From Candidatus Woesebacteria bacterium GW2011_GWB1_39_12 (GTDB lineage: Bacteria > Patescibacteriota > Microgenomatia > UBA8517), in assembly GCA_000993405.1 (NCBI GenBank), contig LBWB01000009.1:13848-77847 (forward strand): DNA of 64,000 bases, given 5' to 3'. Numbering within the stretch: the stretch's first letter is position 1; each line of letters starts with the position of its first letter. Shown here one piece after another: positions 23,226 through 59,065 of this stretch. The notes beneath the pieces were generated by a model. That model ran no database searches, was not told where the DNA came from, and saw only the letters and a list, made by a program, of their open reading frames with translations. A program made the position numbers and the translations under genes.

Positions 23226-23339
23226 ACCTTCGGTGAGTTTACCACGCCTTGTGTGGCCAAGCTTTGCTTATATAACTTGGTTCAAAACTCTTGTTCGTTC
23301 CGTTAAAATACGGAACTCACGGATTTTGAAACAAGTTAT

Positions 23340-23356
23340 AAGCCTTTTCTCAGAAT
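23340..23356 (+). promoter_or_regulatory. Copy 1 of the conserved AGC(C/T)TTTTCTCAGAAT motif upstream of the Spy-like gene
   Basis: agccttttctcagaatg; see copies at 23931, 27438, 27961. Confidence 0.45.
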
Positions 23357-23417
23357 GAAGTAGTAACTTATCAATATCAAGCCCGCCTACGCTAAAAGCT
23401 ATGGCGAGGTAAAGGGG

Positions 23418-23864: not shown

Positions 23865-23886
23865 AATTTCTTCGCTATCGTAGAAA

Positions 23887-23919
23887 CACTCCCGCAGTAA
23901 TATGCGGGGGTGTTTTTTT
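23887..23919 (+). terminator. Rho-independent terminator
   Basis: CACTCCCGCAgtaatatGCGGGGGTG + TTTTTTT. Confidence 0.7.
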
Positions 23920-23930
23920 AGATCAAGTTC

Positions 23931-23950
23931 TTCAGCTTTTTCTCAGAATT
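23931..23950 (+). promoter_or_regulatory. Copy 2 of the conserved motif (TTCAGCTTTTTCTCAGAATT), 20 nt upstream of the adaptor gene
   Basis: Identical 17-mer to the copy at 27961. Confidence 0.5.
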
Positions 23951-23971
23951 CGATTCTACACTTAGGCTTGT

Positions 23972-25186
23972 ATGAATAAAATAAAAGCCATTTTTTCGTG
24001 GTTTTTAAAGGACAAGAAAAGAATTGTCATCGCCGTCATTATTATCGGCGTCTTGATTTTCGGTTACGGAGAAATCTTTGGCAATAAATCCAATCAAACT
24101 CAAATCCAAACCGCAAAAGCAGAAAAAGGAACAATCGTTTCTACTGTTTCCGCATCCGGTAGCGTCATCTCATCAAATATTACCAGCGTTACGACCCAAA
24201 CGAGCGGCCTTGTCAAAAAAGTATACGTAAAAGAGGGCGATAATGTGGCAGTAGGACAAAAATTAGCCGAAATTGAACTTGATTTAGACGGTGCCCAACA
24301 AAATGCATCTGCATATTCAAACTACGTCAGTGCTGTAAATTCTCTTAATTCAGCAAACAATAATCTACGAAGTGCCCAAGCATCTTTGGATGTAGTCTAT
24401 GACGAAATTAAAGGACATGATAATGACGAGTCGCTTACCATTAAAGAGACAAGAACTAAAACTGAAGTTGCGAAAGACAATGCCTACAACTCCATAATAA
24501 ATACTAAGGCAAACCTAACATCTTCTAGTTATAACTTACGCTTAAATTCGCCTGTAATTACCGCACCGACCTCTGGAAAACTAATCAGTTTAACAATTGC
24601 CGAGGGAATGTCTCTAAGCGCACTTACCTCCTCAAGCGGCACAAGAACCGGTCAAAGAGTTGCATCAATTGTTACGGAAGGAAAATCCCTCATTTCGGTC
24701 AATATTTCCGAAATTGACGTTCCGAATGTAGAAATTGGCCAAAAAGCAACCGTAACCTTCGACAGTATTACCGACAAAACTTTTTCCGGCCAGGTGGTTA
24801 CTATCGACAGAGTCGGATCAACAATAAGTAATGTCACTTCCTACCCAGCGATTATCGCTCTCGACACAAATTCCGACCAGATTCTGACTAATATGGCGGT
24901 AACTGTAAATATCATTACCCAGATTAAAAACGATGTACTTCTTATTCCAACATCTGCAGTCCAATTGCAGGGAACCGAGTCTTCCGTCAGGGTTATCAAA
25001 AATGGTGTTCAAGAGAATGTTATTGTCCAAACCGGACTTACCTCTGATTCACAAACTGAAATCACCTCAGGCCTTTTTGAAGGAGATGAAGTGATTACCT
25101 CGACCACAACTTCAACCAGCGGCACTCAAACAAGATCTGTATTTAGTACTGGCGGATTCGGTGGAGCACGATTTATCGGCAGATAA
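23972..25186 (+). CDS. HlyD/MacA-family periplasmic adaptor subunit of an ABC-type efflux pump
   Basis: N-terminal TM; biotin-lipoyl-like and beta-barrel regions (VKKVYVKEGDNVAVGQKLAEIE). Confidence 0.75.
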   Translation: MNKIKAIFSWFLKDKKRIVIAVIIIGVLIFGYGEIFGNKSNQTQIQTAKAEKGTIVSTVSASGSVISSNITSVTTQTSGLVKKVYVKEGDNVAVGQKLAEIELDLDGAQQNASAYSNYVSAVNSLNSANNNLRSAQASLDVVYDEIKGHDNDESLTIKETRTKTEVAKDNAYNSIINTKANLTSSSYNLRLNSPVITAPTSGKLISLTIAEGMSLSALTSSSGTRTGQRVASIVTEGKSLISVNISEIDVPNVEIGQKATVTFDSITDKTFSGQVVTIDRVGSTISNVTSYPAIIALDTNSDQILTNMAVTVNIITQIKNDVLLIPTSAVQLQGTESSVRVIKNGVQENVIVQTGLTSDSQTEITSGLFEGDEVITSTTTSTSGTQTRSVFSTGGFGGARFIGR

Positions 25187-25202
25187 ATCAGGAAGAATTA
25201 AT

Positions 25203-25901
25203 ATGATTGCGGTAAATCATCTATCAAAAATCTACAAAACCGATTCTGTCGAAACAATGGCTCTTTCCGATGTTTCGTTTAATATTAAAAAGGGGGAATT
25301 TGTAGCCATAATGGGCCCTTCTGGTTCGGGCAAATCTACCCTCATGCATATATTAGGAGCCTTGGATTTACCCACAAGCGGATCCTATACTTTGGACGGC
25401 GATAACGTCTCCAATCTTTCTGAAGATGAACTCGCTGATATCAGAAACAAAAAAATTGGCTTTGTTTTCCAAGCTTTTAATTTGCTTCCTCGCACAACCG
25501 CCTTGAAAAATGTCCAGCTACCTATGATCTATGCCGGAATAAAAAAAGAAGACCGCATCAAACTCGCCGAGAAATATTTAACATTGGTTGGCCTTGCCGA
25601 TCGCATGGAACACACGTCAAGCCAGCTCTCCGGTGGTCAACAACAGCGCGTCGCAATTGCCAGATCTTTAGTAATGAATCCCTCAATAATTCTCGCCGAC
25701 GAGCCAACAGGCAATATCGCTACAACCCAAGCCGAAGAAATTATGGAAATCTTCGAGCACCTAAATGACGAGGGGCACACAATTATTATGATTACTCATG
25801 AGCAAGATATTGCCGAACATGCCAAACGCATCATCACCATCCGAGACGGCAAAATTGTTGGAGACATTAAAAACGGCAAAAGAAGAAATTTAAAATCGTA
25901 A
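25203..25901 (+). CDS. ABC transporter ATP-binding protein (MacB/LolD-like)
   Basis: Walker A GPSGSGKST, signature LSGGQQQRVAIARSL, Walker B ILADEPTG. Confidence 0.9.
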   Translation: MIAVNHLSKIYKTDSVETMALSDVSFNIKKGEFVAIMGPSGSGKSTLMHILGALDLPTSGSYTLDGDNVSNLSEDELADIRNKKIGFVFQAFNLLPRTTALKNVQLPMIYAGIKKEDRIKLAEKYLTLVGLADRMEHTSSQLSGGQQQRVAIARSLVMNPSIILADEPTGNIATTQAEEIMEIFEHLNDEGHTIIMITHEQDIAEHAKRIITIRDGKIVGDIKNGKRRNLKS

Positions 25902-25904
25902 ATT

Positions 25905-27128
<1,224 letters not shown>

Positions 27129-27133
27129 GATTA

Positions 27134-27385
27134 TTCTCCTTCTACTCTACGAAATCCTTCAAGAATTTCTGCTTTTTTAGGGGTAAGTCCGAAACTTTTT
27201 AATGCCCCATCACTTCCCCCCAGATTGATTCCTAGTTCTTACATTCTTTGGTTTATTAAAGGGCTATCTTCAGTGTCAAGTTCTCTTCCCAACCCTTCTT
27301 CAATTGCCTTAATAGTATCTCGAAGTAGAATATGATCAGAACCAGTTAGTCCTTGTTTTTTCCAAAAACGATAATCAAAAGACAT
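27134..27385 (-). pseudogene. Small ORF interrupted by an in-frame TAA (possible decayed small gene)
   Basis: MSFDYRFWKKQGLTGSDHILLRDTIKAIEEGLGRELDTEDSPLINQRM*ELGINLGGSDGALKSFGLTPKKAEILEGFRRVEGE*; coding-like on both sides of the stop. Confidence 0.25.
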
Positions 27386-27437
27386 AAGCTATTTGATTCA
27401 AATCTTATTTTATCACTGATTTGTTACAAAAGCTTCA

Positions 27438-27457
27438 TTCAGCTTGTTCTCAGCAAT
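27438..27457 (+). promoter_or_regulatory. Copy 3 of the conserved motif (TTCAGCTTGTTCTCAGCAAT)
   Basis: Upstream of the 27496 gene. Confidence 0.4.
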
Positions 27458-27495
27458 GAAACTTAAAATCTAGGTCAAGAACTGAGGTGATATTT

Positions 27496-27954
27496 ATGAC
27501 AGACGAAGAGAAATCTAAACCAAATAAAAATAGTTTGCTAGTTATATCAGTAGTTGCGTTGGTTGTTGGAGTTGCAGCCTTCCTTGGCGGAATGAAATAT
27601 CAACAAACTAAATCGACAACTCGTTTTTCAGGTTTTAACGGCGAAAAAGGCCAATTTGTGCAAAGAATGGGTGGACCAAGTGGGAATGAAGCAAATTTTC
27701 AACCCATAAACGGCGAAATTATCAGCTCGGACGAGACATCAGTAACAATTAAGTTGCAAGACGGCTCGAGCAAAATTGTTCTTTTGAGTGATTCTACTTC
27801 TATCAATAAAGCGGAATCTGGTTCAAAAGAGGATTTGAAAGAAGGCGAAAAGGTTCTAGTCTTGGGAAATTCTAATTCCGACGGCAGTGTTTCTGCTCAG
27901 TCAATTCAACTCAACCCACCGGATCGAGTGATTTTCAGGCAGGAAAACCAATAA
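27496..27954 (+). CDS. Hypothetical membrane-anchored protein
   Basis: N-terminal TM, Ser/Gly-rich. Confidence 0.5.
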   Translation: MTDEEKSKPNKNSLLVISVVALVVGVAAFLGGMKYQQTKSTTRFSGFNGEKGQFVQRMGGPSGNEANFQPINGEIISSDETSVTIKLQDGSSKIVLLSDSTSINKAESGSKEDLKEGEKVLVLGNSNSDGSVSAQSIQLNPPDRVIFRQENQ

Positions 27955-27960
27955 GAAGCT

Positions 27961-27980
27961 TTCAGCTTTTTCTCAGATTT
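27961..27980 (+). promoter_or_regulatory. Copy 4 of the conserved motif (TTCAGCTTTTTCTCAGATTT), followed by TATAAT
   Basis: Upstream of the S9 peptidase gene. Confidence 0.5.
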
Positions 27981-32768: not shown

Positions 32769-33290
32769 TCACTGTGATCGTAATTCAACCGATGTTTCAT
32801 AAGTTTCACTTTTCTGAAACTCCTGTCTGTCACCTGTTGCTTCAATAGTTATCGAAAACCTGACGTTGGTTGAGCCGGCAGTAGAAAAGTCGGTAAAATT
32901 TAAGGCTGTAACAGTTACTTTGTTGCTTGTCAAAAAATACTGGTTACCCCCATATCCGATCCTCAGGCGTCCGCTCGAAACATCTCTATCTATAACAGTT
33001 GGATTTCGACCAGCATCGGTTGACGCCAAAGAAATTGATGATGCCGAGACAGAATTAACTCCCGAAGCATTTCTGATCTCATACATTATTATTTTTACGG
33101 CGAGTCTCATGTTTTGGTTAACTTCCTGATGCACCTGCGATCTGACTCTTCCGTAAACTATATCCGAAGTAAAATAAATTACTCCGGTCATAAACATCGT
33201 CACAATGGCGATATATAAAATAAGCTCAACCAAAGTAAAGCCTCTTGAGAATTTGGAATTTGGAACTTGGAATTTGGAATTATTCATCAT
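32769..33290 (-). CDS. Prepilin-type minor pilin (start ATG overlaps the upstream stop as ATGA)
   Basis: Leader MMNNSKFQVPNSKFSRG|FTLVELILYIAIV; ORF track extends to a TTG at 33302. Confidence 0.75.
   Translation of the reverse strand: MMNNSKFQVPNSKFSRGFTLVELILYIAIVTMFMTGVIYFTSDIVYGRVRSQVHQEVNQNMRLAVKIIMYEIRNASGVNSVSASSISLASTDAGRNPTVIDRDVSSGRLRIGYGGNQYFLTSNKVTVTALNFTDFSTAGSTNVRFSITIEATGDRQEFQKSETYETSVELRSQ
33248..33280. repeat. Heptanucleotide tandem repeat (GAATTTG)x4.7 inside the prepilin leader coding region
   Basis: gaatttg gaatttg gaacttg gaatttg gaatt; period 7 is not a multiple of 3. Confidence 0.8.
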
Positions 33291-37242: not shown

Positions 37243-38919
37243 TTATTCTTTCGTCACCCTAATTATCTCATCAATGGTTGTTATGCCTTGTTTTACCTTT
37301 CCGATGCCATCCTCCAACATGGTTGTCATTCCATTTTTAACTGCAATTTTTTTAATTTCAGATGACTCTTTTTTGGCAACAATTGCAGTCTTCATTTCGT
37401 CGTCGACTAAAAGTACCTCAAAAATTCCCACGCGACCAACGTAGCCTGTCCCGTGGCACAAATCACAACCCTTACCCTTATATACTCTCAGATTTTTTTC
37501 ATTTGGAAAATACTTTTGCATAATACTTTCCGAAATTTCGTTAATTAAAATGCCGCTAACTTCTTCTGAAACGCGACACTTAAGGCAAATTTTTCTTACC
37601 AAACGCTGGGCAATTACCACATTAACGGTCGTTGCAATAAGAAAAGGTTCAACCCCAAAATCAAGAAGTCTCGGGAAGGCTGTTGCAGCGTCGTTCGTGT
37701 GCAGGGTCGATAAAACCAAGTGTCCTGTCATAGCGGCGTTTATAGAAATGTCTGCGGTTTCTTCGTCACGAATCTCCCCGACCAGAATTATATCGGGGTC
37801 TTGCCTAACTATGGACTTCAAGCCTGCCGCAAAAGTTAAGTTCGTATTCGGATTTACCTGAATTTGATTAACCCCTTCCATGTCGTATTCAACAGGATCT
37901 TCTATTGTCATTATATTCACATTCCTTTTGTTCAAGAGTTTCAAAACCGCATAAAGGGTCGTGGTTTTACCGCTTCCGGTGGGCCCTGTTGACAAAATCA
38001 TCCCGTGAGGCTTGTTGTAAGCGCTTACGACCTTTTTCAGATCGCTTTCGGAAAAACCAAGATCCTGAAGTGAAAATTGGCGACTTCTCTCGGATAAAAG
38101 CCGCATGACAACTTTTTCACCGTTAGTCACTGGAACAATGGAGATCCTGATATCCAAGTTTTCCTCGGCGAGCTCGACACTTATCTTCCCGTCCTGGGCT
38201 GATTGATGTTCGTCTGTTCTTAAGCGGGCCATAACTTTTACCCTGGTCACTATCTGCGGATGTATCACGGAAGGCAAATTTATAATGTCGTGAAGCATTC
38301 CGTCTATTCTGAAACGTACGGTCGAACCGTCATCCGTTGGCTCAATATGAATATCAGATGAGCGGTTTTGGTAAGCATAGGTGATAATTGTATCTACGAT
38401 TTTAATAATTGAAGGTTCGGCAACCTTGGTACCCTTAGCCTCTTTGACACTTTCCGCAATAATTTCATCAAAGACTTTTGCAATATCTTTTGCATAAAGA
38501 TTGAGGGCATCCTTTATACTTCTTTTGGATGCATAATAGGTTTTTACCGGAATCCCGATCTTCTTGCCTATAAAATCCGGCACTTGTTTGTCAGATGGGT
38601 CATTTAAAACAATGTGCAGTCCTTCCTTATCTCTCTTAAATGCAACGACCATCTGCTTTTTTGCATAAACCTCCGGAATTGTATTTAATACACCCTCATC
38701 TATTGCCGTTTCGGAAAGATTAACAAAAGGATAATTAATAAGATCCGCAATAATCTTGCCGATATTAGTGTCTGAAATTAAATCCTTTTGGACAAGTAAT
38801 TCTTCTAAAGAGATTTTTTTAAGACTCGCTTCCTCAAAGGATTCCTTTAATTTGTCCAAGGGAATGACGTCCAATTCTTTTAAAGTATCAAAAAGTTCCT
38901 GCTCGCTAAAAAGCCTCAT
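37243..38919 (-). CDS. pilB: Type IV pilus assembly ATPase PilB (GspE family)
   Basis: Walker A GPTGSGKTTT, Asp/His boxes, C-terminal CxxC...CxxC zinc site. Confidence 0.9.
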   Translation of the reverse strand: MRLFSEQELFDTLKELDVIPLDKLKESFEEASLKKISLEELLVQKDLISDTNIGKIIADLINYPFVNLSETAIDEGVLNTIPEVYAKKQMVVAFKRDKEGLHIVLNDPSDKQVPDFIGKKIGIPVKTYYASKRSIKDALNLYAKDIAKVFDEIIAESVKEAKGTKVAEPSIIKIVDTIITYAYQNRSSDIHIEPTDDGSTVRFRIDGMLHDIINLPSVIHPQIVTRVKVMARLRTDEHQSAQDGKISVELAEENLDIRISIVPVTNGEKVVMRLLSERSRQFSLQDLGFSESDLKKVVSAYNKPHGMILSTGPTGSGKTTTLYAVLKLLNKRNVNIMTIEDPVEYDMEGVNQIQVNPNTNLTFAAGLKSIVRQDPDIILVGEIRDEETADISINAAMTGHLVLSTLHTNDAATAFPRLLDFGVEPFLIATTVNVVIAQRLVRKICLKCRVSEEVSGILINEISESIMQKYFPNEKNLRVYKGKGCDLCHGTGYVGRVGIFEVLLVDDEMKTAIVAKKESSEIKKIAVKNGMTTMLEDGIGKVKQGITTIDEIIRVTKE

Positions 38920-38978
38920 ACTTCCATATTACCAAGCCCGAAGAGGTTTGACTAGAGACCCGAAGGAGGAAGTGGGTT

Positions 38979-39851
38979 GTGATGGAATTGTGGGTCATAG
39001 AAAATGGACATATAAAGTGTTATATTTCGGTTGTGCCAAAAGAATATCCAATACTTGACTACATCGACGACCCAAACATTTGGAAATACTGGTTAATGGA
39101 AGGAATTCCCAAACCTCACGTTGCAGCAGCCCTTTTAACTAATTGGCTCTCGCAATTTGAAACCGGCACACCTGAACATAACACAGGCTTTTGGACCCAA
39201 AGAGCTGCGATGTTTTATACTTCTGTTAGATGGATTAACTACAATATACGAGGAGAATGGGGTGAGAGAGCGGAAATTGTTAACTGGAATGATTTTCTCT
39301 CAAAGATTTCAGCAATTCCAAAAGATACTGGATTCATATTTTTTCCCGGAAAATTTAGAACACTTCCGACACTCAACCAAGTAGAAACCGTCTATTTTGG
39401 TCTGGAAAACTTAAAAACTAAGAAAATTGTTAGTGCTTTAATTTATGAACCTCGTGAGAACGTATCAACAATTGAAGGTGAGAAAATTGTACTTGATGAC
39501 CAAATAAGGAAATGGGCTTATTCACAATTACCCGTTAACGCAGTTACCAGTTTTCCCATTATTAAAGAAGGAGAAAACGTTACTCAGTTTTACACCGATA
39601 GATACAAAGAAATACGAAATGCTAAAAGAGGTTATGTTGGGGTTGCGGTGGGAGCTAGCATTCACAGAAATGAGATAATTAGACTAAGTCAACAATACGA
39701 CATAGAGGTTGTGGATACATCAATAGGAGTAGACGATAGTTTTAAACCTATCTCTTCACTTGATACAACCGACTTCGACAATCTTTCATCTAAATCAGAC
39801 TTAGCCAATGAGCTAATACTCAAATATCTGCAACATATGGGACAGATTTAG
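38979..39851 (+). CDS. Hypothetical protein
   Basis: 290 aa ORF, no recognisable domain. Confidence 0.45.
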   Translation: MMELWVIENGHIKCYISVVPKEYPILDYIDDPNIWKYWLMEGIPKPHVAAALLTNWLSQFETGTPEHNTGFWTQRAAMFYTSVRWINYNIRGEWGERAEIVNWNDFLSKISAIPKDTGFIFFPGKFRTLPTLNQVETVYFGLENLKTKKIVSALIYEPRENVSTIEGEKIVLDDQIRKWAYSQLPVNAVTSFPIIKEGENVTQFYTDRYKEIRNAKRGYVGVAVGASIHRNEIIRLSQQYDIEVVDTSIGVDDSFKPISSLDTTDFDNLSSKSDLANELILKYLQHMGQI

Positions 39852-39875
39852 CTCATCTATAAGTAGATTGGCCAC

Positions 39876-39891
39876 GAAGGAAATGGGTTCT
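39876..39891. repeat. Family-Y element GAAGGAAATGGGTTCT at the 3' end of the methyltransferase gene
   Basis: One of five copies of GGAGGAAATGGGTTC (39876, 40657, 42404, 42736, 43325; loose copy 20502). Confidence 0.6.
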
Positions 39892-40614
39892 CTATTGTTT
39901 AACTCCAATTAATAATCCTCTTTCCTTCATAAGTCCATTTTTAAAATATTTTGAATCTAATCCCTCTTGCTTCATCAACTCTAAAGTTCTATCTATTTCA
40001 AACATCCCAAGTTCGTGTCTGTCAGAAAAATGGATAACACCTTTACCTTTCTCTGCAACCAAATAATGCATATCCATCACTGATAAGTTTCCATCAGCAG
40101 AAGACACATTTAATCTTGCTATTTTGATATCGGGAGCGTCATAAGTTGTCATATGAGGTGCACCAACTTTATAGGTCTTTTTTGTAAACCAGGGTTCAAT
40201 TATAACTACACCGCCCCTTCTTAAATGCCTAGCAAAGTTTTTTAACGTCCTTTGTAAATTTTCATAAGTTTTAACATATCCTATTGAACTAAATAAACAA
40301 GTAATTATGTCAAACTGTTTACCTAATTCCATATTAATCATGTCTGCTTGCCTAAAATCGATATTTTTTAGCCGCTGTCTTGCCATTTTTAACATACCGT
40401 CATTTATATCTACTCCTACACATTTAAATTCTTTCTTTAAATGTTCTAGATGTTTACCAGTTCCACAAGCAACTTCTAATAGCTCGTTTCTACTGGATTT
40501 CTTAAACCGTCCGATTAGCTTTTTAACTTTTAAAGCCTCTTCCCGATAATCTTTAAAAGAATATATAAGGTCGTAGTATTTGGCTGAATTTTTATATAAG
40601 AGTTGTTTTTTCAT
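39892..40614 (-). CDS. Class I SAM-dependent methyltransferase
   Basis: Motif I LEVACGTGKH; 240 aa. Confidence 0.8.
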   Translation of the reverse strand: MKKQLLYKNSAKYYDLIYSFKDYREEALKVKKLIGRFKKSSRNELLEVACGTGKHLEHLKKEFKCVGVDINDGMLKMARQRLKNIDFRQADMINMELGKQFDIITCLFSSIGYVKTYENLQRTLKNFARHLRRGGVVIIEPWFTKKTYKVGAPHMTTYDAPDIKIARLNVSSADGNLSVMDMHYLVAEKGKGVIHFSDRHELGMFEIDRTLELMKQEGLDSKYFKNGLMKERGLLIGVKQ

Positions 40615-40656
40615 TAACTGAAGTATATCAAATTTACAGAATTATCAAGAAGCCGT

Positions 40657-40670
40657 GGAGGAAATGGGTT
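40657..40670. repeat. Family-Y element GGAGGAAATGGGTT
   Basis: Downstream of the ZIP gene stop. Confidence 0.6.
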
Positions 40671-40684
40671 ATCAACTTCAATTA

Positions 40685-41506
40685 TTAACCCAGAGCAACG
40701 TCTAAAATCATCATTATTGTAAAACCCAGCATTGCGCCGATTGTGGCAACGTCGGTTGAATTTTTCTGTGATTCGGGAATGATTTCTTCAACCGATACAT
40801 AAATCATTGCTCCTGCTGCAAATGCAAGCGCATAAGGCAAAAGCGGGCGCATAGCCAAAATACCGACTACTCCGATAACCGCAGCAATAGGCTCAACAAT
40901 CGCCGATCCCTGACCAAAGAGAAAACTCTTTAATTTCCCTACACCCACACGCCTGAAGGGCATTGAAACCGCAAAGCCTTCTGGAAAATTCTGGATTCCG
41001 ATGCCTATGGCCAGAGCAATTGCACTAGCAATAGTTGCTCCGGGAATACCGGCCGCCGCTGCGCCAAATGCAACCCCCACCGCTAGCCCTTCGGGAAAAT
41101 TATGAAATGTTATTGCCAGAAACAGAAGAACGGTAGTATGCCAGCCTGTGGGTAAACCCTCAGGACGCGATCGCGATTTAACAATATTCAGGTGCGGCAG
41201 AATTTTATCCACAATCCATAAAAAAGCCCCTCCTGTTAGAAAACCTATTGCAGGAGGCACCCATTTTATTACACCCAATTGCCCACTGAGAACTATGGAC
41301 GGAGCCAGGAGAGACCAAAAACTGGCAGCGATCATAACGCCGGCCGCAAACCCAAGCATCGCGTCAAGCAACTTTTGTGTAACAGTGCGAAAGACAAATA
41401 CCCCTCCCGCACCGAGTGCCGTCATTCCCCAAGCAAAGAGACCTGCAATAAGTGCAGCAAATATTGGATGGTTGACTAGTACTGTTTGATCCATTAAATT
41501 GAACAT
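40685..41506 (-). CDS. ZIP family metal transporter (ZupT-like)
   Basis: HNFPEGLAVGVAF signature, 8 TM helices. Confidence 0.85.
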   Translation of the reverse strand: MFNLMDQTVLVNHPIFAALIAGLFAWGMTALGAGGVFVFRTVTQKLLDAMLGFAAGVMIAASFWSLLAPSIVLSGQLGVIKWVPPAIGFLTGGAFLWIVDKILPHLNIVKSRSRPEGLPTGWHTTVLLFLAITFHNFPEGLAVGVAFGAAAAGIPGATIASAIALAIGIGIQNFPEGFAVSMPFRRVGVGKLKSFLFGQGSAIVEPIAAVIGVVGILAMRPLLPYALAFAAGAMIYVSVEEIIPESQKNSTDVATIGAMLGFTIMMILDVALG

Positions 41507-41624
41507 ATTTTACTCTAAGAACTTATATTTACTATACTAGTTCCAAATGAAGATATCACAGGTTAAAACCCATGATATCTTCTCGCTAAATATTGATTTT
41601 TGCTTCATCCCCTAGTTGTGGTAT

Positions 41625-42317
41625 TTAATATTCTTCTACTACTCTGGGTCTATCTATATACAGGAGGGTTTTACTATTTACGATTTCAATAACCTCGTCC
41701 ACTGTTGCAAAAACATTTTTTAATTTTCTATATTCTTTCTCACTCATCCAAATGTTTCTACCTTCAGGAACAAGCTTCTTTAATTTTCCTTTAACATTAT
41801 CCACCCTATAAACCCAGAAGTATTTATCCTCCAAAAGTCTACCGTCTTTATGGAAATGGTGGTAATGGATAATTCCTTTCAATTCGAATTTTCCTGTCAA
41901 ACCGGTTTCTTCAAGAAACTCTCTCTTGGCACAATCTTGTGGATTTTCTCCCCATCTTATTTTTCCGCTATGGCTGCCGTACCAGCCGTAAAAAGGTTCT
42001 TTCAATCTTTGGTGCACAAGATACTCTGTAATTCCTTTATGTTCTCTTACTGCATGAAGAGCAACGGCCAGTTTTGCTTGCCTTTCGAGTTTCAAAGCAT
42101 CGGTGTCCATTCTATTAGCAAACTCCTTGCCGTCATCCGTAAGAGAATACCTTCCGTTTGTTTTTACCACTAAACCTTCTTTTAATAAGTGTTTAAGGTG
42201 GAAAGTAAAATGGTCGTTTGTTATGTCAACCTTTTTGAGGTCTCTAAATCTTGCGTTGGGTTTAAAAAGAAGTTCCCGTAAAATTGAAATTTGAAATTCG
42301 TGAATTTTGATTTCCAT
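41625..42317 (-). CDS. NUDIX hydrolase with N-terminal winged-helix DNA-binding domain
   Basis: HTH-like N-terminus; Nudix box GKIRWGENPQDCAKREFLEETGL. Confidence 0.65.
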   Translation of the reverse strand: MEIKIHEFQISILRELLFKPNARFRDLKKVDITNDHFTFHLKHLLKEGLVVKTNGRYSLTDDGKEFANRMDTDALKLERQAKLAVALHAVREHKGITEYLVHQRLKEPFYGWYGSHSGKIRWGENPQDCAKREFLEETGLTGKFELKGIIHYHHFHKDGRLLEDKYFWVYRVDNVKGKLKKLVPEGRNIWMSEKEYRKLKNVFATVDEVIEIVNSKTLLYIDRPRVVEEY

Positions 42318-42403
42318 GTTTACCGCTATTATTTACCACAAAATTCCAGAAGTCTAGTATAGTCAACTTAACCAAATGGATATTATCTAGTTTTCTAAGG
42401 CTG

Positions 42404-42418
42404 GAGGGGAAATGAAGT
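42404..42418. repeat. Family-Y element variant GGAGGGGAAATGAAG
   Basis: Immediately 3' of the 42420 gene stop. Confidence 0.45.
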
Positions 42419-42419
42419 A

Positions 42420-42719
42420 TTATGCAGTAGGGTGAATTTGAACTTTCTTCTCAACCTTTTCCATTCTTGGTTCAAGGTCATCATAAACCTTACTCGTCAA
42501 TACAATCTGTTCTTCTCTCATCGTTTTCAGCTCGGTCATTATCTCATCCATTTTGCTAAAGAAGTCTTCCTTAGACGGAAAATGCTTTAGTTTTTCATTA
42601 AGTTTCTCTTCCAATTCTTCATCAATAGTAATTTTCATCAAATCTTTAATTGCGTTTAAATCCTTATCTGTAAGTGCCATATTGCTATTTAAGTATATAA
42701 AAGAAAATCTGTCAATCAT
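42420..42719 (-). CDS. Hypothetical coiled-coil protein
   Basis: 99 aa charged/helical ORF. Confidence 0.45.
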   Translation of the reverse strand: MIDRFSFIYLNSNMALTDKDLNAIKDLMKITIDEELEEKLNEKLKHFPSKEDFFSKMDEIMTELKTMREEQIVLTSKVYDDLEPRMEKVEKKVQIHPTA

Positions 42720-42735
42720 TTAAAATCACATCTCT

Positions 42736-42750
42736 GGAGGAAATGGGTTC
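42736..42750. repeat. Family-Y element GGAGGAAATGGGTTC overlapping the stop of the NUDIX gene
   Basis: Seen in sequence. Confidence 0.6.
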
Positions 42751-43275
42751 TTATCCATTCTTGTCTACTCTCTGATTGAGAGATTTTACCAGTTGTGAGT
42801 TTTTCCATTGGATGTTTGTGTACAAAATACCTGGTTTGTCGTTAAGTACGTGGTCAAAATAATATTTCGCTGGCGGAAAAACGTTATCCATAACAAGTAG
42901 TTCTTCAAGTGGTATCCATTTGGCATTTCCTTCCAGATCTTCTTTTTTTTCCTTTTGGTTTTTCTTGATGGTTGCCAGAAAGACAAAAGATACCCAGACT
43001 TCTTTCCTATCCATGTGGTGATGAAGAGCTATACCCTTCAATTTTATGTCGTCTAAATCAACTTTAACTCCAGCCTCTTCGTCTATTTCTCTTACAGCTG
43101 CCAAAAGAGCATCTTCATCATGATCGATATGGCCACCCGGTCCAATCCAAAAACCCGGAAATTTACTGGCAGTGTCGCTTCTTTTGAACATCAATACTTT
43201 GCCATCTTTGATTACATAGCACTCCGACGCAAGCATTATCTGGCCTAGCTCGTCTAAATGCTTTGATTCATTCAT
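42751..43275 (-). CDS. NUDIX hydrolase
   Basis: Nudix box GPGGHIDHDEDALLAAVREIDEEAGV. Confidence 0.8.
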   Translation of the reverse strand: MNESKHLDELGQIMLASECYVIKDGKVLMFKRSDTASKFPGFWIGPGGHIDHDEDALLAAVREIDEEAGVKVDLDDIKLKGIALHHHMDRKEVWVSFVFLATIKKNQKEKKEDLEGNAKWIPLEELLVMDNVFPPAKYYFDHVLNDKPGILYTNIQWKNSQLVKSLNQRVDKNG

Positions 43276-43324
43276 ACAGAATTAATTATATAATACTTTA
43301 GGCAATATAATGCGAAAATGCTGC

Positions 43325-43339
43325 GGGGGAAATGGGTTC
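43325..43339. repeat. Family-Y element GGGGGAAATGGGTTC overlapping the EamA gene stop
   Basis: Seen in sequence. Confidence 0.6.
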
Positions 43340-44221
43340 TTAAGTTCTTCTATATAAAACAGCATTTATATTTGGAAGTATTGCGGCTGAAATTATTAAT
43401 AAACCACCAAGATATGTCGCAGGTTGAGGATACTCCTTGAAAACAAAATAGGAAAATAGTGTTGCGAATATAATCTCGACCGGTAGAATAATGCTTCCTA
43501 CCTGGGCTTCGATATTTTTAAACCCGTAAACTATCAGGCCGACATTTACTGTTTGGACAAGTGCATAGACAAATATCCAAAACCATTTAACTGAAGAGGA
43601 TTCCATTGGCAGTTTTTCTTTAAAAAGCATGGATCCAATAAGTGCAGCAATTACCCCCCCCGCCGCATCCATCATAACTATTTGGTTATTAGAATAATGA
43701 TCAGAGAACTTCTTCGAAATCGTATTCCAAACACCTGTCATAAATCCGGATGTAAAAGCCAGAATAACATAAATGACTTCGTTTGAGCTAATACTAAATC
43801 TGTAAATTATTACAAGTCCCAGAAAGCAAAGCACCAAAGACGCAGTTTTTGAAATATTTAACTTCTCTTTAAAAAATATCTTCCCGGAAATGAATCCTGC
43901 AGCAATCATCGACGAATAAATTATCAAATATGTCGTTCCGATTTGGAGATTGTTAAATGCAATAAATGTTAAAACCGTCACCCAAGATCCGGATAAAAGC
44001 CATAAAATAATCCATTTCAGATCTTCCTTTCGAATTGCCAGAAGCTTGGTCTTTCTTATGACTATCACGCCAGCAATTAATGCGAGAACAATCAGGTTTC
44101 TTACCCAGTTTTGACTAAAACTTCCAAAAGAAGTTCCAATTAATCTTGAAAATATCCCATAAAGTCCATAAAATCCCGCAGCAGTAAAAAGTGAAATTGC
44201 ACCAAACTTCTGATTCTTCAT
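43340..44221 (-). CDS. EamA/DMT family transporter
   Basis: 293 aa, ~10 TM helices. Confidence 0.7.
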   Translation of the reverse strand: MKNQKFGAISLFTAAGFYGLYGIFSRLIGTSFGSFSQNWVRNLIVLALIAGVIVIRKTKLLAIRKEDLKWIILWLLSGSWVTVLTFIAFNNLQIGTTYLIIYSSMIAAGFISGKIFFKEKLNISKTASLVLCFLGLVIIYRFSISSNEVIYVILAFTSGFMTGVWNTISKKFSDHYSNNQIVMMDAAGGVIAALIGSMLFKEKLPMESSSVKWFWIFVYALVQTVNVGLIVYGFKNIEAQVGSIILPVEIIFATLFSYFVFKEYPQPATYLGGLLIISAAILPNINAVLYRRT

Positions 44222-44241
44222 TACAAATTAAATTTTATCAC

Positions 44242-44313
44242 GATCCTGAGTGAAATCGAAGGATTATAATCCTGAGTTCATCGAAGGACTCCGGAGTTAA
44301 TTTGAAGACAAAT
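44242..44313. repeat. Extended family-X element (72 nt): direct repeats ATCCTGAGT..TCGAAGGA x2, palindrome AGGATTATAATCCT, CTCCGGAG, AATTTGAAGACAAAT
   Basis: ~95% identical to 46013-46083; contains a TATAAT hexamer inside the palindrome. Confidence 0.7.
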
Positions 44314-44819
44314 TATTTATTGATTTTATACCTGTTAAATGCCTCCACAAATCCCGGTGGAAAATCTTTTGGGTTATCTTCCATCATTTTTTCCACAGTA
44401 GCCAAACTAAACCATCGCCCGCCACTCAGCTCATTCTGGTCCAACATTATCGCTCCGTCAAAAATAGTTGTGTAAAGAGTACTAAATTCTTTTAGTAACT
44501 GTCCCTTAAAATCTTGCTCTTTGTAAAATTTTGTAATCCTATCCAGTGTCGAGGTGCTAATCCCCAATTCTTCTCTCAACTCACGCATTGCAGCTTCATC
44601 GTAAGTTTCACCCTCATCAACATGTCCGCCCGCTGATTGATCCCATGTGTCAGGGTAAGTTGTCATACTAGCACTCCTCCTTTGAAGGTACATCTCACCC
44701 TTACTGTTAAATACAAATATTCTAACAATTCTTCTTATTAAACCATTTTTAAATGCAGTCTCTTTATCCTCCGAGCCAACGACATTATCATTCTTATCAA
44801 CAATTACCACTTTCGACAT
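44313..44819 (-). CDS. NUDIX hydrolase (IPP-isomerase-like fold)
   Basis: Nudix box SAGGHVDEGETYDEAAMRELREELGI. Confidence 0.75.
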   Translation of the reverse strand: MSKVVIVDKNDNVVGSEDKETAFKNGLIRRIVRIFVFNSKGEMYLQRRSASMTTYPDTWDQSAGGHVDEGETYDEAAMRELREELGISTSTLDRITKFYKEQDFKGQLLKEFSTLYTTIFDGAIMLDQNELSGGRWFSLATVEKMMEDNPKDFPPGFVEAFNRYKINK

Positions 44820-44841
44820 AATGAAATTATATCATTTTCTT

Positions 44842-44864
44842 CTGGAGTCAATTTGAAGACAAAT
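44842..44864. repeat. Family-X core CTGGAGTCAATTTGAAGACAAAT
   Basis: Between the DUF5615 stop and the NUDIX start. Confidence 0.6.
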
Positions 44865-44880
44865 ATTCTTTCCTGAAATT

Positions 44881-45258
44881 TTAACTAACTATCCTAAAAC
44901 CTGTTTCCTTGACTACAGTTAGTTTATTGTTTAAGTTTATTGAGGGTTTTGGATTCTCAATAAACCTTCTGAGAATTTCATTGACGTTCTCGGGTGTTTG
45001 ATTTTTTGTTCGTACATGTATTATTCCAATCTTGCCCTTCTCACGGAAATACCATAGATCCGCAAAATCACGGTCAAAGGTAATAATAATTCTTGCTTCC
45101 CTTTTAGCTTTCTTCACTACCTCTTCATCAGACAAATAATGAAGCTTTTGCTCAAGAATTGAGGTAGCATCAAAATTAAGATTTCTCAAAAATTCTGCAG
45201 TAAGTGGAGAAAGATTTGCATCCAAAAGAAATTTAGGCAAAGTTGTAGTTTTCCTCAC
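44881..45258 (-). CDS. DUF5615 (PIN-like) protein, second copy
   Basis: KFLLDANLSP...ARIIITFDRDF. Confidence 0.65.
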   Translation of the reverse strand: MRKTTTLPKFLLDANLSPLTAEFLRNLNFDATSILEQKLHYLSDEEVVKKAKREARIIITFDRDFADLWYFREKGKIGIIHVRTKNQTPENVNEILRRFIENPKPSINLNNKLTVVKETGFRIVS

Positions 45259-45460
45259 GATTTAACTTCTCTGCTGCAAATGCGAGCGCTGCCTCAATTT
45301 GCTTTCTGGTAATAGGTGGGTAAGCTTTCGCTATTTTTTCAAAAGTGTATCCATTTGCAAGAAGGTTAAGGATAGTTCCCACAGGAATCCTAGTGCCTTT
45401 TATGACGGGCTTACCAACCATCACCTTCGGATTGATTTCAATATACTTATCGTATTTCAT
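45233..45460 (-). CDS. DUF433 protein, second copy (overlaps DUF5615 gene by 26 nt)
   Basis: VMVGKPVIKGTRIPVGTILNLLANGYT. Confidence 0.7.
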   Translation of the reverse strand: MKYDKYIEINPKVMVGKPVIKGTRIPVGTILNLLANGYTFEKIAKAYPPITRKQIEAALAFAAEKLNREENYNFA

Positions 45461-45516
45461 ACCCGTTATTGTAGCACTTCAATCAAGACGTAGTAAGTGC
45501 AGAACTTCCACAAAAC

Positions 45517-45541
45517 CTCCGGAGCTAATTTGAAGACAAAT
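45517..45541. repeat. Family-X core CTCCGGAGCTAATTTGAAGACAAAT abutting the HIT gene stop
   Basis: Seen in sequence. Confidence 0.6.
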
Positions 45542-45996
45542 TATAAATTTTCCTTTAATTCTTTAATGATCTTTATTAGAACGTCTTCGGGTTGTAAAAA
45601 GATTCTATCTTGCCCTCGAGCATAATGTGAGCCAAATTCAGGATCTTTAAAGGTAAGTCCTGCAAACTTCACGTCTCTTTCATATCTTGGCCTTACATGC
45701 CAATGAATATGCGGATTAGCCGTTTTTTCTTTAAAAGCATTATTCATTAAACAGGACCAATTGATGAGTTTCGCATCAAAAGTTCTTTTAAAACAACTTT
45801 CAAGTTTTCTTACTAATTCAGAAAAATCTAACCATTCGTCTTTTGTTAATTCAGAAAGACTTCCGCAATGCCTTTTTAAAGAAACAAAAGAACGTCCTAA
45901 ATATTCCTGATTTTCATTGATATCAACTTTCCAAAATTTAGTTTGAGTAATCGTTCTACCGAAATTATTCAGAAAAGGGCAAACATCGCAGTTCAT
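45541..45996 (-). CDS. HIT family hydrolase
   Basis: HIHWHVRP histidine triad; N-terminal CxxC. Confidence 0.7.
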   Translation of the reverse strand: MNCDVCPFLNNFGRTITQTKFWKVDINENQEYLGRSFVSLKRHCGSLSELTKDEWLDFSELVRKLESCFKRTFDAKLINWSCLMNNAFKEKTANPHIHWHVRPRYERDVKFAGLTFKDPEFGSHYARGQDRIFLQPEDVLIKIIKELKENL

Positions 45997-46012
45997 GAGC
46001 CAATTTTACCAT

Positions 46013-46083
46013 GATCCTGAGTCAAATCGAAGGATTATAATCCTGAGTTTACCGAAGGACTCCGGAGCTAATTTGAAGACAAA
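46013..46083. repeat. Extended family-X element, second copy, in the divergent region between the HIT and SGNH genes
   Basis: ~95% identity to 44242-44313. Confidence 0.7.
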
Positions 46084-46113
46084 TGATTATTTCAGATACG
46101 ATACAATGGTTGG

Positions 46114-46971
46114 ATGGATATTCAAAAAAAGGATGTTTTCATACGATTGTTATCTCTTTCTGTTCTTTTTCTTATTTTCGTCGCCTCCTTATCAAATGTT
46201 CAAAGACCTCAGAAAGTTAATCCTGCGCGGGGATTCAACCCGACATACACGCCCACTCCTATCCCTTTTAATCCTTTTCCTTACAAAATTCCAACCATTC
46301 CTTATTCCCGTGCGTATCGAACGATGCTCGTCGGAGATTCAATAGTCGGCTCTCTCGGGCCAAACGCAGACCGCCTGCGCCAACACCTGATAGTTTTTTA
46401 CCCGAGTCATGAATTTGTTAACTATAATTACGGTTTCGGCGCAACCAGTATAGAAACGTTACCAGAGAGACTCGCTGAAAATACTGTTTATAGAGGTCAA
46501 AGTTATCAGCCGATTTTATCCCAGGGCTTTGATCTTATCATTGTAGAATCATTTGGCTACAATCCCCTCTCGCAGTTAAATGAAGGGGAAGGCCTTGCAA
46601 AACACATGCAAATTTTGGACGAAAACATAAAGAAAATTATCATAGAAAAACCCCACTCAGTAGTTGCAATAATGACCCCAATTGCTCCGAATAAAAGTTA
46701 TTTTGCGAAGGGCGTCTATGACCTTTCCTCAGAGGAAAGAATTAAGTGGGCAAATGAGCGGATTTCATATATCGAAGCCGTAATTGTCTATGCGAAGGAT
46801 AACGAAATTCCTCTCATTAATGTTTATGAGAAATCTTTGACCGCCCAAGACGACGGCAATCTAGCCTACATCAATCCGGATGATTATGTTCACCCCTCAG
46901 CCGAGGGTATTGAACTTATTAGTAGAACTATTGCGGAATTCATCTTTAGCGCTAAAATCTTCCCGGAGTAG
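46114..46971 (+). CDS. SGNH/GDSL-type hydrolase, secreted
   Basis: Block I LVGDSIVGS; block V DDYVHPS; N-terminal signal anchor. Confidence 0.65.
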   Translation: MDIQKKDVFIRLLSLSVLFLIFVASLSNVQRPQKVNPARGFNPTYTPTPIPFNPFPYKIPTIPYSRAYRTMLVGDSIVGSLGPNADRLRQHLIVFYPSHEFVNYNYGFGATSIETLPERLAENTVYRGQSYQPILSQGFDLIIVESFGYNPLSQLNEGEGLAKHMQILDENIKKIIIEKPHSVVAIMTPIAPNKSYFAKGVYDLSSEERIKWANERISYIEAVIVYAKDNEIPLINVYEKSLTAQDDGNLAYINPDDYVHPSAEGIELISRTIAEFIFSAKIFPE

Positions 46972-46975
46972 ACAA

Positions 46976-47539
46976 TTACTTAAACATAACCACCCATTTA
47001 TAATCTGGAAGAATCAGAAGCGGAAGTTTTTCCTTGTAAGAAGCTAGTTTTTTGATTATCTTTATATCCCCTTGCTTATAATGACAATACGACTTTATAT
47101 CTAGAATTCCCAAACCTCTCTCAATTTTCTGAACTTCGTTTCCGTAATAATACTTAGCCAGACAATTTACTCCAGCAGACGAACCTCCAACAACCTTACC
47201 CTCAAGTAACTTACCAAGATTTTTTGTTACCGCAAGTTTCTTGATCAACTTATCTGTTGCAAAACCACCCGCAAGATAGATAAGATCAGCCCATTTCACC
47301 TGCTCAGGGAAGTTATTAACTTCTGCTAATTTAAACTCGACATTTTTACCCTTAGCAAAATACCTGAATGTCTCGCTGTGCCGTTTAAATTTATCTTCAA
47401 CTTTATTCTCGTCGCTTGCAAAATAAGTCATAAGAAGATTGAGGTTTTCTTTATTTCCGATAGTCATTTCTTTAAAGAAACCGTAGTTGTCTTGATTTTT
47501 GTCGCCAAGATTCCCGCCGTGCAAAACAAATTTAATCAT
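46976..47539 (-). CDS. Peptidase S51 (dipeptidase E/cyanophycinase-like) family protein
   Basis: GGSSAG nucleophile motif. Confidence 0.6.
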   Translation of the reverse strand: MIKFVLHGGNLGDKNQDNYGFFKEMTIGNKENLNLLMTYFASDENKVEDKFKRHSETFRYFAKGKNVEFKLAEVNNFPEQVKWADLIYLAGGFATDKLIKKLAVTKNLGKLLEGKVVGGSSAGVNCLAKYYYGNEVQKIERGLGILDIKSYCHYKQGDIKIIKKLASYKEKLPLLILPDYKWVVMFK

Positions 47540-47561
47540 TAGCGAATTATATCAAATTTCT

Positions 47562-47583
47562 CGAAGCTAATTTGAAGACAAAT
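47562..47583. repeat. Family-X core CGAAGCTAATTTGAAGACAAAT
   Basis: Between the receiver gene stop and the S51 gene start. Confidence 0.6.
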
Positions 47584-47602
47584 CTTAATATGGAGATTGC
47601 AT

Positions 47603-47977
47603 TCATTGGGCTGGGCCGATGAGGGATTGGAGCTTGGCGACCAAACCCGTTATTGCAAAATCAGTTTTGACAATGTAGTCTTTAGCTCCCAAGCCCATTG
47701 CTTTCTCTATATCTTCTTTTTGACCTAAGTTAGAGGCAACAATAACAGGAATATTTTTCCACTCGTCATTTTTCTTCATCTCGGAAAGAACCGAGAAACC
47801 GTCCTTTTTTGGCATTACCAAGTCCAATATAATAAGATCGAATTTGCCCTTTTGAAGCGCCGCAAGTGTTTCCTCACCGTCTGCAACCAAAGTTACGTCG
47901 TATGAAGCTTTAGTAAGTTTTACTCTATAGGCATTTGCTAAAAATTTATCATCTTCGGCAACAAGTATTTTCTTCAT
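47603..47977 (-). CDS. Single-domain response regulator (CheY-like receiver) 3
   Basis: ILVAEDD...DLIILDLVMPKKDG...K; 124 aa. Confidence 0.85.
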   Translation of the reverse strand: MKKILVAEDDKFLANAYRVKLTKASYDVTLVADGEETLAALQKGKFDLIILDLVMPKKDGFSVLSEMKKNDEWKNIPVIVASNLGQKEDIEKAMGLGAKDYIVKTDFAITGLVAKLQSLIGPAQ

Positions 47978-58597: not shown

Positions 58598-58678
58598 TTA
58601 GTGAATAGTGAATAGTGGATAGTGAATAGTGGATTTCTAATTCTGTATTACCAACCACCAATCACTAATCACCAAACA
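58598..58678. repeat. Two heptanucleotide arrays in inverted orientation filling the ybeY-dnaX intergenic region
   Basis: Left: AGTGAAT AGTGAAT AGTGGAT AGTGAAT AGTGGAT. Right: CACCAAT CACTAAT CACCAAA CACTAAT (approximate reverse complement). 16-nt spacer. Confidence 0.7.
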
Positions 58679-59065
58679 CTAATTATGGTGCTTTCCCATC
58701 AAATGTAGCGCACCGTGCTCGACTAATTCAAGTACCTTTTCGTCTATCAGCTTACCCTCGCTTTCTGCTTCCTTGACGACTTTGGGGTAACAAATGACAA
58801 TGTCTCCCAAGTGAATAGTCTCATCTGGCGGCTCGATAAAAGCCTGGTCACCTTCGAGGTAAGGGAATGTCAAAACGTCATGAACCTCTCTTTCCCTTAA
58901 ATACTTTATGGCAAGATTAAGCATATGTTTTTGGCTAACAAAACTAACGCTTACATCTGCCTTCGAAACAATTCCCTCCTTTGTCAAAACTTCCTTCAAA
59001 ATTTTTTTGACTTTTGGAGCACTAACCGGGCAGTTTGTAAGTTTTTTGACATAAACCTGTATCAT
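58679..59065 (-). CDS. ybeY: rRNA maturation endoribonuclease YbeY
   Basis: HGALHLMGKHH zinc-binding motif. Confidence 0.85.
   Translation of the reverse strand: MIQVYVKKLTNCPVSAPKVKKILKEVLTKEGIVSKADVSVSFVSQKHMLNLAIKYLREREVHDVLTFPYLEGDQAFIEPPDETIHLGDIVICYPKVVKEAESEGKLIDEKVLELVEHGALHLMGKHHN

Follow-up and report, generated by a model that had tools for sequence, protein, structure and literature searches.

A short repeat at gene boundaries of a hypervariable island in a Candidatus Woesebacteria genome as a possible cassette-junction site

Results

The DNA analyzed here, a window of 64 kb from Candidatus Woesebacteria GW2011_GWB1_39_12, an uncultured bacterium of the candidate phyla radiation (CPR) from Rifle aquifer groundwater, contains a hypervariable island of ~8.6 kb (38965..47591, minus strand) that lies between a response-regulator gene and pilB and consists of ~10 cassettes, at whose boundaries two short repeats, here called Y and X, recur. 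Y is the main subject of this study. In array order, the cassettes encode an S51 peptidase together with a GDSL hydrolase whose gene is inverted, a HIT protein, a toxin-antitoxin-like pair of DUF433 and DUF5615 proteins, a NUDIX protein, and an EamA transporter, and after the last of these another NUDIX protein, an 86-aa protein, a winged helix-turn-helix (wHTH)-NUDIX protein with a ZIP transporter, a methyltransferase, and a 289-aa protein whose gene is again inverted. The conserved flank on one side is the third single-domain response-regulator gene (47603..47977, minus strand), just past whose 3' end the synteny with relatives stops, and that on the other side is pilB, which encodes a T2SSE ATPase (37243..38919, minus strand) that is 100% identical to a protein on record for this bacterium. 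The inverted gene for the 289-290 aa protein (38979..39851, plus strand) is situated between two Y sites.

On the minus strand, which is that of the genes, Y reads G-AACCCATTTCCTCC. Searching the window for its plus-strand form, GGAGGAAATGGG, with at most one mismatch gave five matches, at 38965, 39876, 40657, 42736, and 43325, all on the plus strand, against a chance level of 0.45 matches on average, and none of 100 dinucleotide-preserving shuffles gave five; the repeat noticed in an earlier, sequence-only reading of this DNA is therefore present where it had been placed and exceeds chance. A profile built from 39 members of the Y family recovered four strong copies in the window (E 1e-5 to 5e-5) and the copy at 38965 (E 0.13), and it found no other Y in the 64 kb, including the ~65 genes outside the island. 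The claim that every copy reads GGAGGAAATGGG had to be narrowed to the copies at 40657 and 42736, as the plus-strand sequence is GAAGG.. at 39876, GGGGG.. at 43325, and GGAGGAAGTGGG at 38965. The copy at 38965 lies outside the range that the earlier reading covered, and the fifth copy within that range is a degenerate one at 42403, GGAGGGGAAATGAAGTA, which was recognized by eye and missed by the profile search. An intact GGAGG followed by ATG is thus found in two of the six window copies.

Most of these copies are in close contact with a stop codon. The first Y past the X block, GAACCCATTTCCCCC (43325..43339, minus strand), follows the TAA (43340-43342) of the EamA transporter gene with 0 nt in between, and GAACCCATTTCCTCC (42736..42750, minus strand) follows the TAA (42751-42753) of the 174-aa NUDIX gene in the same way. 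The degenerate Y-like copy TACTTCATTTCCCCTCC (42403..42419, minus strand) abuts the TAA (42420-42422) of the 86-aa gene, and GAACCCATTTCCTTC (39876..39890, minus strand) is located 1 nt past the TAG of the methyltransferase gene. The stop contexts on the minus strand accordingly read TAA/GAACCC at 42751 and 43340, TAG-A-GAACCC at 39892, and TAA/TACTTCATTTCC at 42420. The placement directly behind stop codons that had been described earlier thus applies at 0-1 nt to three genes and also to the degenerate copy. It does not apply to the copy AACCCATTTCCTCC with its right box ACGGCTTCTTGA (40645..40670, minus strand), which lies 14 nt past the stop of the ZIP transporter gene (40685) and upstream of the methyltransferase promoter, nor to AACCCACTTCCTCC (38965..38978, minus strand), the final array site, which has no minus-strand stop before it, borders the inverted 289-aa gene at its start, and precedes the pilB ATG by 45 nt. 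Because the genes abutted by Y are mutually unrelated, Y is not a relic of gene duplication. The junction behind the wHTH-NUDIX gene, in the Y block, has no Y copy but a hairpin of 10 perfectly matched bp (GAAGATATCA ... TGATATCTTC) with ATTT after it (41560-41593), and this is the only junction of the block with such a terminator-like hairpin.

The next five gene units, at 44.3-47.6 kb, are divided by X, which reads ATTTGTCTTCAAATTAGCTCCGGAG on the minus strand. The X block comprises five copies of ATTTGTCTTCAAATTAGCTC(CGGAG) on that strand (44294..47583), at 47564-47583, 46065-46084, 45522-45541, 44845-44864, and 44294-44313, three of which share one base with the preceding stop codon (TAA/TTTG). 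X holds an inverted repeat whose 7-bp arms are 4 nt apart (TAATTTG TCTT CAAATTA) and an 8-bp palindrome, CTCCGGAG. In the window, both repeats are confined to the island, with zero copies in the remaining 55 kb or in the adjoining 10 kb, and the ideas of a DNA uptake sequence or a general terminator were rejected on this ground. An intrinsic terminator was likewise discarded, as the window copies of Y form no stable hairpin and the hairpins of longer forms are optional and lack a T run directly after them. Rfam and tRNA scans of the window returned no matches, and by eye neither Y nor X resembles the 3' end of a tRNA.

Two 87-nt repeats in the X block, at 44231-44317 and 46002-46088, are 92% identical to each other and consist of X plus an insertion of ~50 nt before the -10 box, which in turn is made of a direct repeat (TCCTTCGAT..CTCAGGAT twice). 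This insertion is missing at the homologous HIT cassette junction of contig L056, and shorter versions of it are found in contigs L051 and L058. Many contigs from the population break at or near X and the 87-nt repeats, for example by starting ~90 nt ahead of the HIT gene or ending right after it, as would be expected if the repeats disrupted assembly or if the joints were heterogeneous.

Comparison with relatives delimited the island. In contig L019, whose PilB is 69% identical, the genes for a histidine kinase and three response regulators are followed by a 134-nt spacer, pilB, and pilC, and the slot contains neither X nor Y. In contig L018, whose PilB is 91% identical, the slot holds genes for a sulfotransferase-like protein, a 154-aa protein, a split EamA transporter, a MOSC protein, and a 301-aa protein, all of which differ from those of the window; its EamA gene (4059-4921) is broken into open reading frames (ORFs) of 125 and 150 aa and is probably a pseudogene. 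Nucleotide synteny between the window and L018 covers the regulator genes, is lost at 47613, and comes back at 38978, which is the 5' edge of the last Y copy. L018 also possesses Y and X copies of its own, on the same strand as its pilB, and one of them lies directly past the TGA of the 301-aa gene. Since the genes in the slot are absent or replaced in the relatives and synteny resumes only at the last Y, the 8.6 kb is a hypervariable island to which the motifs belong. A second accessory cluster of the window (~2300-6000), located beside the histidyl-tRNA synthetase gene and comprising a second DUF433/DUF5615 pair, a GNAT acetyltransferase gene, and an EamA transporter gene, is devoid of X and Y sites.

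When X was used to search metagenomes, many false matches in a conserved coding sequence of unrelated bacteria were set aside, and ~20 independent contigs with arrays that contain both X and Y were recovered; three further arrays were found through homologues of window proteins (L147, L151). All 83 sites in the 21 non-redundant loci are on the array strand, and the 10 sites of the window itself are on one strand. Among successive sites, the transitions XX, YY, XY, and YX were counted 28, 20, 13, and 1 times, respectively, so X sites come first and Y sites later. The left edge falls within -2 to +3 nt of the stop codon of a co-oriented ORF at 20 of 36 non-redundant Y sites and 17 of 50 X sites, compared with 2.3% of random positions in the same loci. 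The units between sites comprise one to three accessory genes, for NUDIX proteins, GNAT proteins, methyltransferases, HIT proteins, transporters, or toxin-antitoxin pairs. A minority of the array genes are inverted, and the sites around them are not; that the motif keeps the orientation of the array beside inverted genes points to a site that acts in DNA and not in mRNA. In L055 (5213-6064), and also in L114, a gene for an IS30-like transposase (weak rve match) is found immediately upstream of the first X of the array.

A scan for GGRGGAAATGGGTTCTTA in 185,579 species genomes, which do not include that of the window, gave 11 single matches in unrelated phyla, a number that we estimate to be at chance level or below, and viral contigs gave three single Y matches and zero X, with no sign of phage origin.

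Homologous cassettes occur in different surroundings, and their similarity is bounded by the elements. The 174-aa NUDIX protein has a homologue in L147, 89% identical, for which the similarity extends from the start codon to just past TAA-G-ACCTCATTTCCTCC; upstream of it lies an inverted G6PD gene and no Y. Homologues of the same protein at 74-75% identity that reside in ordinary genomic contexts have no Y. The methyltransferase unit recurs in L151 with its upstream Y, spacer, promoter, ORF, and next Y, among other neighbors, and the junction at 40645..40670 is homologous throughout to the one before the L151 cassette. The inverted 289-aa unit between two Y sites recurs there as well (836-1723; inverted, 65% identity), again with different neighbors. 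In L018, the homologue of the 289-aa gene encodes the 301-aa protein (6110-7015, 28% identity), which occupies the same last slot before pilB in the opposite orientation and is also placed between two Y sites, in direct orientation. This family of ~290-300 aa had no match in Pfam, NCBIfam, or PDB sequences. Upstream of a GNAT unit, Y is found in L046 and an X variant in L074, with similarity starting at the -10 box and Y following both, and further homologous cassette pairs behave likewise in that their similarity stops at the elements.

In eight of eight such pairs, the same type of element lies downstream of the homologous ORFs, while the upstream element agrees in ~6 of 8. Since elements of the same type stand behind homologous ORFs in all eight, the element may belong to the 3' end of the unit and go with it, as attC does, although the numbers are too small to be sure. 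This constancy, together with the close adjacency to stop codons, would also be expected if Y were an RNA-level 3'-end element, such as a factor-dependent terminator or a stability or processing signal, that travels with its upstream gene, and the long forms of Y do have GC-rich hairpins, at times followed by a T-rich run. We consider this improbable, however. The window copies have no significant structure, the GC-rich hairpins are optional insertions between the boxes, ~65 genes outside the island do without the element, and inverted array genes carry no inverted copy at their own 3' ends, with convergent or inverted genes sharing a cassette between co-oriented elements.

The left box of Y (AG-AAMCCATTTCCTCC) is well conserved, and the right box (GCGGCTTCTGA) is weaker, with an information content of ~0.2-0.6 bit per position. 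The element is 15-26 nt long, TTTCCTCC is the best-conserved part of the family, and those of the window are short forms whose right box has decayed. Folding of the window copies was weak (0 to -5.4 kcal/mol), without significant structure, and ten Y elements had no shared structure, the outer AGAA.CC/GG.TTCT pairing being weak; the left box is non-palindromic and lacks a hairpin. About one-third of the Y sites carry, precisely where the left box would meet the right one, an inserted GC-rich hairpin module of 18-51 nt. These modules fall into a few recurrent families (e.g., CCGCCAGAGGCGGACAGGC) and enter Y at one exact point, CCTCC / GCGGCTTC, in the arrays of L094, L038, L125, L119, L058, L074, L018 (5961-6030), and L151, and they may be small mobile palindromes that use CCTCC as their target.

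The precise entry right after CCTCC resembles the behavior of IS200/IS605-like families, which insert 3' of a fixed short target, and raises the question of whether X and Y are the ends or targets of small non-autonomous transposable units moved in trans by a single-strand HUH/Y1 transposase (IS200/IS605, RAYT-like), the arrays then being tandem insertions. The placement of all elements on one strand would suit such a mechanism, as would the L151 array, which has a Y1_Tnp gene (PF01797) between CCGAGG...CCTCGG hairpins. Nevertheless, we give the idea little credence: there is no Y1 transposase gene in the window or in the examined parts of most other arrays, the left box of Y has no hairpin, the cassettes are ordinary metabolic and transporter genes without conserved terminal hairpins, and the hairpin modules may be separate hitch-hikers. 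The CCGAGG(N)CCTCGG hairpins flanking the Y1_Tnp gene in L151 are at 6815-6835 and 7292-7312; one is also found in L019 (4570-4590), and the window has a single copy (16384-16404) after a gene ending at 16379.

On the plus strand, Y looks like a Shine-Dalgarno (SD) sequence followed by a start codon, and on the sense strand it has CCUCC, which led the sequence-only reading to consider antisense start sites or a post-termination element that interacts with the ribosome. The antisense micro-ORFs of 3-13 codons that it described do exist (MGSLLFNSN, MGYQLQLLTQSNV, MGSYPFLSTL, and MGS, each closed by a stop codon), and MG is all that they have in common. A role of Y in translation, whether through these SD+ATG micro-ORFs or through CCUCC meeting ribosomes or SD sequences, is in line with the presence of GGAGG-4 nt-ATG in two copies and nearly in two more, with the fact that the most conserved part of the family is TTTCCTCC, and with the reverse-complement GGAGG found 9-12 nt upstream of the inverted gene start, both at 38965 and at its L151 counterpart, which, going by its position, could be the SD sequence of that gene and hence a partial exception. 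Even so, we think such a role very improbable. No conserved ORF lies behind the ATG, and SD usage is rare, an SD-like 4-mer preceding only 11 of the 78 window genes and GGAGG only 2, which speaks against antisense starts. CCUCC is identical to the anti-SD sequence and so cannot pair with it, and the motif is tied to the island and to the array strand instead of to the adjacent gene, being missing at the other stop codons of the window and after the distant NUDIX homologues outside arrays, which does not fit a post-termination element either. The SD/anti-SD appearance is best read as an incidental by-product of the site sequence.

The 78 candidate genes of the window look mostly leaderless: for 32 of them, a TAnnnT or extended -10 box has its end 5-10 nt ahead of the start codon. 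Going by the sequence, every array junction likewise has, 5-10 nt ahead of the start codon, what looks like an extended -10 box, and some junctions bring the repeats into close relation with it. At 9 of 50 X sites, TAAAAT follows exactly, which gives TTGTCT-17 nt-TAAAAT-6/7 nt-ATG, and at compact Y junctions the arrangement is GAACCCATTTCCTCCGCATCTTCTGATATAAT-9 nt-ATG, with the end of the right box providing the TG of the extended -10 (...CTTCTGATATAAT). At most X and Y sites, insertions or a spacer of variable length separate the element from the -10 box. The idea that X is simply a -35 box was rejected, as this holds for those 9 of 50 sites only. Promoters of the extracytoplasmic function (ECF) sigma type, the consensus of which we take to be GAAC at -35 with a TCTGA-like -10, have a spacing of 15-17 nt that the core form of Y, GAACCC-N15-TCTGA, fits but the other forms do not, since the boxes are 18-51 nt apart in about one-third of the sites, and the best-conserved CCATTTCCTCC would be the spacer.

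These arrangements bear on the possibility that X and Y are portable cis-regulatory modules, each belonging to the downstream gene either as one half of its promoter, the upstream one, or as an operator for a shared regulator, whose joint-like appearance would result from the trimming of intergenic DNA in streamlined genomes and the swapping of islands by ordinary homologous recombination. The nine X sites form textbook promoters for leaderless mRNA, the compact Y junctions with their extended -10 TG look similar, the inverted repeat (TAATTTG/CAAATTA) and the palindrome CTCCGGAG of X could be operators, and the methyltransferase cassette retains its upstream Y, spacer, and promoter in two arrays. 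However, the -10 box lies anywhere from 0 to >60 nt from the element, with insertions in between, while the upstream stop is at 0-2 nt; depending on the array, one and the same ORF is preceded by Y, by an X variant, or by nothing; and neither the X-then-Y order nor the single strand of 83 of 83 sites regardless of gene direction is predicted. Moreover, the copy at 39876 lies between convergent genes, so that there is no co-oriented downstream gene able to use it as a promoter; like the copy at 38965, it resists a plain interpretation as a promoter or 3'-end element. We therefore regard a purely regulatory nature of the elements as rather unlikely, though it is the main alternative.

Two other classes of repeat were seen in the window. 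An intergenic repeat, TTCAGCTTTTTCTCAGA, recurs locally at 21336-27977 on the plus strand, with five copies (at most three mismatches; 0.57 expected) at 21336, 23338, 23931, 27438, and 27961; because the genes that it precedes surround those of a MacB-type ABC transporter and an OmpR-type two-component system, it may be an operator or promoter of that regulon. Intergenic tandem repeats with a 7-nt period (GAATTTG, TAGTGAA, ACCAATC, and TTTAGGA, with 4-5 copies each) are found near the pilin operon and dnaX, at 33249-33281, 58599-58634, 58650-58683, and 445-475.

Discussion

The hotspot between conserved genes, the repeats on one strand, the X-then-Y order, the unit edges at stop codons, and the cassettes shared between arrays lead us to read Y as a cassette-junction site. 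We slightly favor the interpretation that it acts at the DNA level in a hypervariable array and that such arrays are rebuilt by recombination between like elements. A unit would consist of an extended -10 promoter, one mostly leaderless ORF or sometimes two or three, a stop codon, and then X or Y, and X would recombine with X and Y with Y to make and reshuffle arrays. Recombination of like with like would explain the direct repeats on one strand, the succession of an X block and a Y block, and the bounding of similarity by the elements, none of which, like the existence of a hotspot and the shuffling of cassettes, is predicted by an element that is only regulatory or that works only at the RNA level. 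The third suggestion of the sequence-only reading, the footprint of a mobile element, comes close to the comparative data, in that the motif marks the joints of exchangeable cassettes. Y itself would most likely be the substrate of the recombination. The crossover would then be positioned at the element, and the activity involved might be a site-specific recombinase or, as another possibility, short-homology recombination after DNA uptake. Y also sits in the upstream region of the promoter of the next gene, and its roles as a junction and as a promoter module are compatible with each other.

Several points weigh against this interpretation. Searches of Pfam, NCBIfam, and PDB sequences revealed no recombinase gene in the 64-kb window or in the flanks of the arrays, and the transposase genes near arrays, an IS30-like rve gene in L055 and Y1_Tnp in L151, are isolated cases. 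Symmetry or structure marks most of the known sites for site-specific recombination, whereas the left box of Y is non-palindromic and the window copies fold weakly (0 to -5.4 kcal/mol). Compact X and Y elements occupy the place of the upstream half of a promoter, so their conservation could be regulatory. Among contigs with proteins identical to those of the window, no strain-level gain or loss of cassettes was seen, and neither a circular intermediate nor an empty-site pair was observed. In addition, the arrays were collected by means of X, so the sample is biased toward genomes that carry it. The 289-aa gene was considered as a hidden integrase and rejected, because it matches no family, its homologues themselves move as a cassette, and it is absent from the other arrays compared.

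The arrangement resembles integron cassette arrays and clusters of attC sites lacking integron-integrases (CALIN). In both, the units are unrelated to one another, mostly co-oriented, and often of a single gene, with toxin-antitoxin pairs among them; a repeat in direct orientation lies 0-2 nt past each ORF stop; cassettes are common to different arrays and reordered between them with breakpoints at the sites; and there are occasional inverted cassettes as well as fused cassettes without a repeat. The crossover site of the integrase has an RYYYAAC...GTTRRRY core (PMC8876359). None of 96 junctions here has RYYYAAC and GTTRRRY at attC-like spacing, and none has RYYYAAC in the first 45 nt. The element is also much shorter than attC, at 15-26 nt compared with ~55-141 nt, and has no imperfect palindrome, and there is no IntI-type tyrosine recombinase among the Pfam matches for the 64-kb window and the array flanks. 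Furthermore, integron cassettes are generally promoterless and depend on a common Pc promoter (PMC4670013, PMC1382264), while each cassette here seems to carry a -10 promoter of its own and to start without a leader, and the existence of two site classes arranged in blocks is another difference. The array thus works like that of an integron without having the features that define one, and there is a substantial chance that it represents a distinct cassette system.

Other known systems agree with it in part. The pdif modules of Acinetobacter plasmids are bounded by 28-bp XerC/XerD sites of 11-6-11 structure in alternating orientation. Like them, the cassettes are discrete gene modules, including toxin-antitoxin genes, with short conserved bounding sites, different contexts, and no dedicated integrase nearby, a likeness of general features; unlike them, the sites of the arrays are all co-oriented, and nothing like 11-6-11 is evident in X or Y. 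Repetitive extragenic palindromic sequences (REPs) are palindromic and dispersed across the genome. The short intergenic repeats just past stop codons and the GC-rich hairpin modules in many Y elements recall REPs, the bacterial interspersed mosaic elements (BIMEs) built from them, and the REP-associated tyrosine transposases (RAYTs), but the left box of Y is non-palindromic, and Y is bound to the island, where it lies at the boundaries of exchanged genes. Y1_Tnp, the counterpart of RAYT, was found only in L151, where it is flanked by a hairpin other than Y.

A more specific idea is that X and Y are the attachment sites of an undescribed cassette system of CPR bacteria (Woesebacteria and relatives), with promoters in the cassettes and either a recombinase encoded away from the array or uptake coupled to pili. 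We put this forward tentatively, as a real possibility that falls short of being probable. Such a system would be a functional analogue of the integron in which two classes of short non-attC sites, each recombining only within its class, give rise to bipartite X-Y arrays and the promoters serve leaderless mRNAs, and its recombination might be coupled to DNA uptake via the neighboring type IV pilus genes. In the literature searched, we found nothing on cassette arrays or integron-like systems in CPR/Patescibacteria, under integrons, cassettes, genomic islands, or leaderless translation, which is not proof of absence.

For the reading of sequences in general, the case of Y is a caution that a perfect-looking SD+ATG or anti-SD string can arise from an unrelated DNA site. 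The X and Y motifs offer a handle for finding arrays and for cassette-PCR on environmental DNA, and they may account for the assembly breaks in this region. CPR bacteria are host-dependent organisms with tiny genomes, and the ways in which they gain accessory genes are little understood. If the interpretation proposed here is true, modular gene capture of the integron type would have evolved with different sites and probably different enzymes, and a dedicated cassette platform, present in many groundwater metagenomes, would provide these bacteria, a large section of the bacterial tree that is uncultured, with a route for gene flow and niche adaptation.

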